This document shows, in pieces, positions 61,644-62,447 of a DNA stretch of 64,000 nt. A program made the position numbers and the translations under genes. Source of the DNA: Escherichia phage ECO111 5-P; the sequence record OR844765; one strand, 5' to 3'. Below the pieces are notes generated by a model. That model ran no database searches. It worked only from the letters and a program-made list of their open reading frames with translations, and was not told the origin of the DNA. Numbering within the stretch: position 1 is the first letter of the stretch; each line of letters begins with the position of its first letter.

Positions 61644-61987
61644 CCAAAATGTTGGCTTTAATAGTTGGCTTGGTTTCATTTAATGCTCTTGCTAATACTA
61701 CATATACTGATGTAACGGAGTATACAAACAGAACGGCGTCTGATTATTGTGGTAAAAGTCAAGAGTGTAAAGTAGATTTTTCACAAAAATTGTTATATGC
61801 GTATAAAGACGGAGAAAAAGATGGGGCGTCTAGTAGGTTCAAGGCGTCTACCTTAATTAAAAGATACTATAAAAAATGGCAAATATTAGAATGCTCGGTG
61901 GCGGAACCTAAAGATAAGGCAGCATGCAATTCTATGGTGGACCGTCTAGTTGACTCTTATAATAGAGGACTTGCAGCAAGTGATTAA
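61640..61987 (+). CDS. Small secreted Cys-containing protein
   Basis: 115 aa; signal-peptide-like MTKMLALIVGLVSFNALA; 4 Cys; translationally coupled to SLT-like gene. Confidence 0.5.
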   Translation: MTKMLALIVGLVSFNALANTTYTDVTEYTNRTASDYCGKSQECKVDFSQKLLYAYKDGEKDGASSRFKASTLIKRYYKKWQILECSVAEPKDKAACNSMVDRLVDSYNRGLAASD

Positions 61988-62447
61988 AAACTATATCAAG
62001 GGCGATATTGTCGCCCTGTTTTCTAAAGGTAATAATATTGCTCATGGGTGTAATTGTTTTCATACAATGGGCGCTGGTGTAGCAGGACAATTAGCAAAGG
62101 CTTATCCAAAAATTCTGGAAGCCGATAAACTTCAAACTGAATTCGGAGACGAGTCTAAACTCGGGACTTATTCGGTTTATGAAAAATATTTTAAGACCCA
62201 TAAAGCTTATTGCTTTAATCTTTATACACAGTTTGAGCCGGGACCTAATTTTGAGTACTCTGCTTTAATGAATTGTATAATAGAATTAAATGAATTCGGA
62301 AAGAATAAGATAACAAAGCCTGTAATTTATATGCCAAGAATTGGTGCAGGTATTGGTGGTGGAAACTGGGATGTCATCGAAGAGATTTTAGATACGTATT
62401 CCACTAAACTAGAAATTGTGATTGTTGATTGGGAACCATTATTATGA
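61950..62447 (+). CDS. Macro-domain-like protein (putative ADP-ribose binding/hydrolase)
   Basis: …GDIVALFSKGNNIAHGCNCFHTMGAGVAGQLAKAYP… and …YMPRIGAGIGGGNWDVI… resemble the macro-domain Gly-rich motifs of YmdB/MacroD; start uncertain (ATG 61950 overlaps upstream gene by 38 nt; GTG ~61980 possible). Confidence 0.5.
   Translation: MTLIIEDLQQVIKNYIKGDIVALFSKGNNIAHGCNCFHTMGAGVAGQLAKAYPKILEADKLQTEFGDESKLGTYSVYEKYFKTHKAYCFNLYTQFEPGPNFEYSALMNCIIELNEFGKNKITKPVIYMPRIGAGIGGGNWDVIEEILDTYSTKLEIVIVDWEPLL

Follow-up and report, generated by a model that had tools for sequence, protein, structure and literature searches.

The interval between regB and tk in Escherichia phage ECO111 5-P (sequence record OR844765) encodes a small protein rich in glycine motifs, and the question that it raises is whether this is a macrodomain and, if so, which ADP-ribose it acts on and with what active site. 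We studied it in the window, by which we mean the whole stretch of 64,000 nucleotides analyzed. The reading that we favor, with a probability of roughly 78%, is that the gene is an ortholog of T4 tk.4/adfM, whose product, a macrodomain of the ALC1/TARG1-like kind, erases from phage DNA the ADP-ribose added by DarT2. Orthology, fold, and active-site make-up are established in the present analysis; the counter-defense role of T4 tk.4 is already known from the literature.

A plus-strand open reading frame of 165 amino acids runs from a TTG at 61950 to 62447 and contains both glycine-rich motifs, NNIAHGCNCFHTMGAGVAGQLAKAYP and PRIGAGIGGGNWDV. The preliminary description took this frame as the gene, quoting motifs that read in frame as NIAHGCNCFHTMGAGVAGQLAKAY and RIGAGIGGGNW. 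The frame is real, as confirmed by a motif content and homology far beyond chance, and the strand and motifs of that description stand; its start does not. We moved the start to the GTG at 61980 because this is the annotated start codon in closely related phages (none is annotated from TTG 61950), because it is aligned base-for-base in register with the ATG of T4 tk.4, because a GAGGA box precedes it as it also precedes the T4 ATG, and because tblastn alignments of distant homologs begin only at residue 11 of the 165-residue frame. On the homolog alignments, the Shine-Dalgarno position, and the T4 register together we rejected TTG 61950. Translation therefore likely begins 30 nt inside the long frame and yields a protein of 155 amino acids, and the upstream extension is probably not translated (Table 1).

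Table 1. Coordinates of the tk.4 ortholog, its sequence features, and its immediate neighbors in the window
Feature	Position	Strand	Basis or remark
vs (valyl-tRNA synthetase modifier), upstream neighbor	61640..61987	+	Open reading frame; annotation in relatives and T4
In-frame upstream extension from TTG	61950..61979	+	Inside 3' end of vs
GAGGA Shine-Dalgarno	61965..61969	+	10 nt upstream of GTG 61980; read from sequence
tk.4/adfM ortholog, stand-alone macrodomain, 155 aa	61980..62447	+	GTG start (likely); TGA stop 62445-62447
Loop 1 of ADP-ribose pocket, H22-G-C-N25-C-F-H-T-M-G31-A-G33-V-A35-G36	62043..62087	+	Conservation, alignment
N80-L-Y82-T83-Q84 motif, end of central strand	62217..62231	+	Q84 at TARG1/DarG catalytic-lysine position
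Loop 2, diphosphate-binding, glycine-rich, P119-R-I-G-A-G-I-G-G-G-N-W130	62334..62369	+	Conservation, TARG1 alignment
tk.3 homolog, downstream neighbor	62444..62656	+	Sequence, relatives' annotation, T4 gene order

The open reading frames and the annotation of relatives give the local gene order as regB-vs.1-vs-tk.4-tk.3-tk.2-tk.1-tk, identical to that of T4 (NC_000866). The 3 kb from 60600 to 63650 share 97-98.6% identity with the DNA of RB69-like coliphages of the genus Mosigvirus, among them PNJ-6, moskry, and HX01, and the records of these phages label the gene "macro domain protein" or "phosphatase." The predicted protein matches T4 Tk.4 (NP_049723) over its full length without gaps, with 131 of 155 residues (85%) identical, which identifies the gene, as judged from sequence, as the Mosigvirus (RB69-like) ortholog of T4 tk.4, lately renamed adfM. 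In NC_000866 the 155-residue T4 product bears the note "phosphatase; contains A1pp phosphatase motif," and this macro/A1pp annotation is two decades old. The preliminary description named no macro-domain gene at this T4 position, yet tk.4 sits exactly there with its A1pp annotation. Since both the T4 gene and the "macro domain protein" label of the relatives were already known, the implied novelty is gone.

The TAA of vs (61985-61987) overlaps the start of tk.4 inside GTGATTAA (61980-61987), and the tk.4 TGA overlaps the tk.3 ATG as ATGA (62444-62447), the tk.3 open frame spanning 62429-62656 on the plus strand with its start annotated at 62444. These successive stop/start overlaps suggest translational coupling along the vs-tk string, a form of packing that is usual for T-even early genes. 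Several records of relatives call the tk.3 homolog a "putative ABC transporter ATP-binding protein," which is implausible for a product of 70 residues and looks like a mis-annotation that has been propagated. About 6 kb upstream, beside the lysozyme gene, lies a NudE-type Nudix hydrolase (55763-56221, plus strand, 152 aa, motif GRVEPGESPIEAAIRECEEETG), another enzyme able to handle ADP-ribose-type nucleotides. No DarT gene is annotated anywhere in the 43 kb examined, and the immediate neighbors of tk.4 are vs and tk.3.

An 8-bp hairpin, AGGGCGAT-ATT-GTCGCCCT (61999-62017), was flagged as terminator-like 20 nt into the tk.4 coding region, and in the minimum-free-energy fold of 61963-62026 the Shine-Dalgarno sequence (UAGAGGAC) is paired with GUUUUCUA just past it (z = -2.37). 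The hairpin sequence is identical in T4 and phage JY01, but Klebsiella phage EI has changes that break it and none that compensate. Given this uncompensated break and a z of only about -2.4, we rejected the hairpin as a functional element; probably it arises by coincidence from the coding sequence or is peculiar to close relatives. A scan for sigma-70 promoters over 60300-64000 was uninformative, returning 11 sites, fewer than the 14.4 in shuffled sequence.

The protein matches the Pfam Macro family (PF01661, clan MACRO) with 28.1 bits (the gathering cut-off is 22), over profile positions 2-117 of 118, and matches PHROG 335, "phosphatase," with an E value of 8e-67. There are 369 database homologs (best E 1e-99), and tblastn finds homologs in 2,799 phage records, the host genera including Escherichia, Klebsiella, Salmonella, Pseudomonas, Vibrio, and Acinetobacter, among others. 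Macro domains occur in about 41% of myoviruses according to a published survey (PMC9503650). The AlphaFold2 model, made from an alignment of 66 homologs, has a pLDDT of 95 and a pTM of 0.90 and depicts a three-layer alpha/beta/alpha macro fold in which two glycine-rich loops line an ADP-ribose cleft; Foldseek comparison with the PDB ranks TARG1, Poa1p, BT1257, and the Thermus and Mycobacterium DarG macrodomains at the top. The protein is thus confirmed, by sequence and predicted fold, as a stand-alone macrodomain. The macro-domain claim of the preliminary description is borne out by the Pfam score and by the structural matches, and the check by profile and structure prediction that it had proposed recovered the macro fold.

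In sequence and in structure the protein is nearer to the ALC1-like/TARG1-like class, for which we considered TARG1, DarG, SCO6735, Poa1p, and BT1257, than to MacroD, macroH2A, PARG, or viral Mac1. MacroD enzymes have a GGG(V/L/I)D loop that carries a catalytic Asp. Here that Asp is absent and MacroD/YmdB is not the closest structural class, and the resemblance to YmdB/MacroD first proposed for this protein gives way to an ALC1/TARG1-like assignment. DarG models are the sole NCBIfam (E 8e-8) and the sole PADLOC (E 9e-9) matches, covering the macrodomain half only. We nevertheless rejected filing the protein as DarG, since it falls below the NCBIfam cut-off and lacks the C-terminal domain, the Lys80, and the adjacent DarT.

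Conservation was assessed over the 66 homologs, which extend down to 37% identity. Residues C26, G33, A35, D49, L61, G62, N80, Y82, T83, Q84, P119, I121, G122, and G124 are invariant, and H22, G23, C24, N25, M30, G31, I125, G128, W130, and others are conserved in at least 90%. MAFFT and hhalign both align N25 with N22 of DarG and N23 of PhiKZ AdfM, mutation of which lowers the activity of the PhiKZ enzyme (PMC13309987). Q84 falls opposite TARG1 K84 in a HMMER profile alignment and opposite DarG K80 and PhiKZ K78 both in MAFFT and in an ungapped profile-profile hhalign alignment (Prob 99.4%, E 1.5e-21), in which the family profile was set against a profile of four Lys-type sequences. One hhalign alignment, made with PhiKZ gp104 as a single sequence, set K78 opposite G88; it was gapped and of low confidence and was discarded, the three ungapped alignments agreeing on Q84. 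Loop 2 aligns with PRIGCGLDRLQW of TARG1, the D125 of which corresponds to G126, and the TARG1 catalytic dyad K84/D125 becomes Q84/G126 here.

Absence of the canonical catalytic lysine would fit an alternative in which DarT2 is neutralized mainly by binding of the macrodomain to the toxin or substrate site, as a stoichiometric inhibitor for which hydrolysis is dispensable. Inhibition of DarT in vitro is retained by the catalytically dead variants SCO6735 Q85A, DarG K80A, and TARG1 K84A, and is strongest for SCO6735 (PMC9411070). However, the residues of the ADP-ribose pocket are all invariant or nearly so in homologs down to 37% identity, which points to selection on catalysis, and the protein has no DarG-type DarT-binding domain: it ends at residue 155, and its match to the NCBIfam DarG equivalog NF048014 covers positions 4-146 of that 338-position model and reaches 31.9 bits where the cut-off is 250. 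We consider inhibition by binding very improbable.

Erasure of ADP-ribose by hydrolysis, the reading that we prefer, is compatible with glutamine at this position. SCO6735 of Streptomyces coelicolor has Gln85 in place of the lysine; it cleaves DarT-made thymidine-ADP-ribose efficiently, is inactive as Q85A, and protects E. coli against DarT, which it can also block through binding (PMC9411070). Its glutamine positions the distal ribose, and a water held by the backbone at Val25 has been proposed to start the reaction (PMC9411070). Because a Gln-type enzyme cleaves thymidine-ADP-ribose, loss of the lysine is no argument against de-ADP-ribosylation of DNA. The correspondence of Q84 to Gln85 is only transitive, by way of TARG1 K84/DarG K80 and the published structural superposition (PMC9411070), and a search of the PDB with a 50-residue fragment for an alignment with SCO6735 returned no match. 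On these alignments Tk.4 would group with SCO6735 and BT1257, which are of the Gln type, apart from the Lys-type DarG and PhiKZ gp104. Since the DarG/TARG1 catalytic lysine is absent, the proposed activity rests on the analogy with SCO6735, from which we infer that the protein hydrolyzes thymidine-linked ADP-ribose by an SCO6735-type mechanism.

The genetic evidence comes from T4. [quoted passage not shown] In a HIDEN-SEQ transposon screen tk.4 was the single significant T4 gene on a host expressing DarTG2, and a clean knockout rendered T4 sensitive to DarTG2, whereupon the gene was renamed adfM, for "anti-DarT factor Macrodomain"; removal of ADP-ribose from DNA was deduced in that 2025 preprint, which is not peer-reviewed, from fold similarity only (bioRxiv 10.1101/2025.11.20.689424). 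Searches of the papers on CmdTAC and on RNA-ADP-ribose hydrolases found no assay of the T4 macrodomain (Tk.4), and the only T4 enzyme named in the passages so found is T4 NADAR. For the phage studied here, a role against DarTG2 is carried over by analogy from the T4 phenotype. Given the requirement for tk.4 against DarTG2 in T4, the earlier suggestion that the protein reverses host ADP-ribosylation of phage DNA appears essentially right.

In the mechanism that we propose, tk.4 would be expressed as part of the early/middle string of genes between vs and tk, with its translation probably coupled to that of vs. Its product would bind ADP-ribose once DarT2, a toxin of the host, has placed it on thymidine N3 in TNTC motifs of single-stranded phage DNA and would hydrolyze the ribose-base bond, restoring replicable DNA and defeating the abortive-infection defense of DarTG2. 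Tk.4 could then be regarded as an "orphan antitoxin," equivalent to the DarG macrodomain alone without the DarT-binding C-terminal domain, with an active site that would be based on Gln84, as in SCO6735, instead of on the lysine of DarG and TARG1.

A different substrate would agree with the similarity to Poa1p and with the "phosphatase / A1pp" name that the gene has long carried: as an ADP-ribose-1''-phosphate phosphatase or O-acetyl-ADP-ribose deacetylase, the enzyme would clear small-molecule derivatives and would not repair DNA. Two residues were probed in Poa1p mutant structures, H23 and S30; the equivalent of the former (H22) is conserved in at least 90% of the family, whereas that of the latter, T29, varies (T, Q, K, M, or I), and this variable site counts against the phosphatase reading. 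The only known phenotype of the ortholog, moreover, is specific to a DNA-ADP-ribosylating toxin (bioRxiv 10.1101/2025.11.20.689424), the annotated neighborhood contains no Tpt1/KptA-type source of Appr1p, and the name "phosphatase" derives from a motif and not from an assay. A purely small-molecule role is therefore improbable in our estimate. The phosphatase and DNA-eraser activities are not mutually exclusive, and the former could be an extra activity.

ADP-ribose might also be erased from other targets, namely uracil-linked marks on RNA, Glu/Asp-linked marks left on proteins by other host toxins, or the marks of Alt, ModA, and ModB. The last three enzymes modify arginine, and cleavage of the arginine-ADP-ribose linkage is not known for TARG1-class macrodomains; the connection to the phage's own Alt, ModA, and ModB drawn in the preliminary description finds no support. 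The wider targets gain some plausibility from the enzymes themselves, in that TARG1, DarG, and SCO6735 also reverse uracil-ADP-ribosylation of RNA (PMC13036486) and proteins are also substrates of SCO6735 and TARG1 (PMC9411070), and from the presence of the family in approximately 2,800 phage records from many host genera. The known phenotype is nonetheless specific to DarTG2 (bioRxiv 10.1101/2025.11.20.689424), and we give hardly any credence to this reading as a replacement for erasure from DNA; such cleavage would most likely add to erasure from DNA and not stand in for it.

Beyond DNA erasure in the strict sense, one may speculate that the Tk.4 family is more than a copy of DarG and forms a distinct, phage-wide eraser of the Gln type, with a lysine-independent, SCO6735-like water mechanism and a broader range, covering DNA thymidine and RNA uracil, that serves against several unrelated host toxins. 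The invariant Q84, the closeness to BT1257 and SCO6735, and the diversity of alleles are compatible with this idea, and such breadth, if true, would explain both the spread over approximately 2,800 phage genomes and the divergent, mosaic alleles of the T-even phages. We regard it as doubtful.

That diversity is evident within Tequatrovirus, which holds two classes of tk.4 allele. The T4-type allele is 85% identical to the Mosigvirus protein, and the JY01-type, found also in other Tequatrovirus records, e.g., H38 and H40, approximately 59%. When positions 601-1080 of the JY01 stretch used, 3923-4390 of the T4 stretch used, and 61980-62447 of the window were compared, JY01 proved identical to T4 over the first 14 or so amino acids (approximately 60 nt including the upstream flank) and divergent thereafter, suggesting mosaic recombination within tk.4. 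All of the active-site invariants are retained in the JY01-type allele.

As a discovery the gene carries little weight, being a syntenic, 85%-identical copy of a T4 gene whose role is already in a preprint. The practical value lies in correct annotation. Labels now in use for the gene are "phosphatase," "hypothetical protein," and "putative thymidine kinase," the last of which, a gloss on tk.4 in a 2026 preprint, is a mis-annotation; a fitting label would be anti-DarT2 macrodomain (AdfM/Tk.4 family). The residual interest is mechanistic, in that the family carries the SCO6735-type glutamine where the assumed "DarG-like hydrolysis" would call for the catalytic lysine.

Among known systems, T4 Tk.4 is the nearest, with the same neighbors, the same start position, and every invariant residue of the family. 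It differs by 24 substitutions (e.g., MGSG for MGAG and GIGKGNW for GIGGGNW) and by an ATG start codon in place of GTG, and it comes from a Tequatrovirus and not a Mosigvirus; the anti-DarTG2 phenotype is known from this T4 allele. The name AdfM is also borne by PhiKZ gp104, a Lys-type, DarG-like protein with biochemistry behind it, which is imported into the phage nucleus and strips DarT2-made ADP-ribose from a TNTC oligonucleotide in vitro (PMC13309987). T4 Tk.4, in contrast, is Gln-type, is known from genetics alone (bioRxiv 10.1101/2025.11.20.689424), and is approximately 20% identical to PhiKZ gp104. The two are different macrodomain lineages and should not be treated as one enzyme. As read from the alignments, the Gln-for-Lys active site that separates these two "AdfM" proteins is only a modestly new point.

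DarG (Taq, 5M31/5M3E; Mtb, 5M3I) has a second, DarT-binding C-terminal domain, which the protein here lacks; where DarG has K80 and PhiKZ gp104 has K78, it has the invariant Gln84, at an overall identity of approximately 20%. Human TARG1/OARD1 (C6orf130) and yeast Poa1p, both top Foldseek matches, belong to the same macrodomain class. TARG1 removes thymidine-linked ADP-ribose from DNA (PMC9411070, PMC13036486), whereas Poa1p is a small-molecule phosphatase that is structurally as near to the protein here as is DarG. BT1257 of Bacteroides thetaiotaomicron (PDB 2FG1/2AFC) is a structural-genomics protein of no known function, and the match to it is for that reason functionally uninformative. SCO6735 (PDB 5E3B) serves its bacterium in housekeeping or stress and contains an additional element, the "mobile loop," and its likeness in sequence is remote (E 6.6e-5 with a single sequence, 2.3e-14 with a profile) and weaker than that of BT1257; it nonetheless has in common with the phage protein its fold class, glutamine in place of lysine, and the lack of an Asp125 equivalent, and it is likewise a stand-alone macrodomain that is not encoded beside a DarT.
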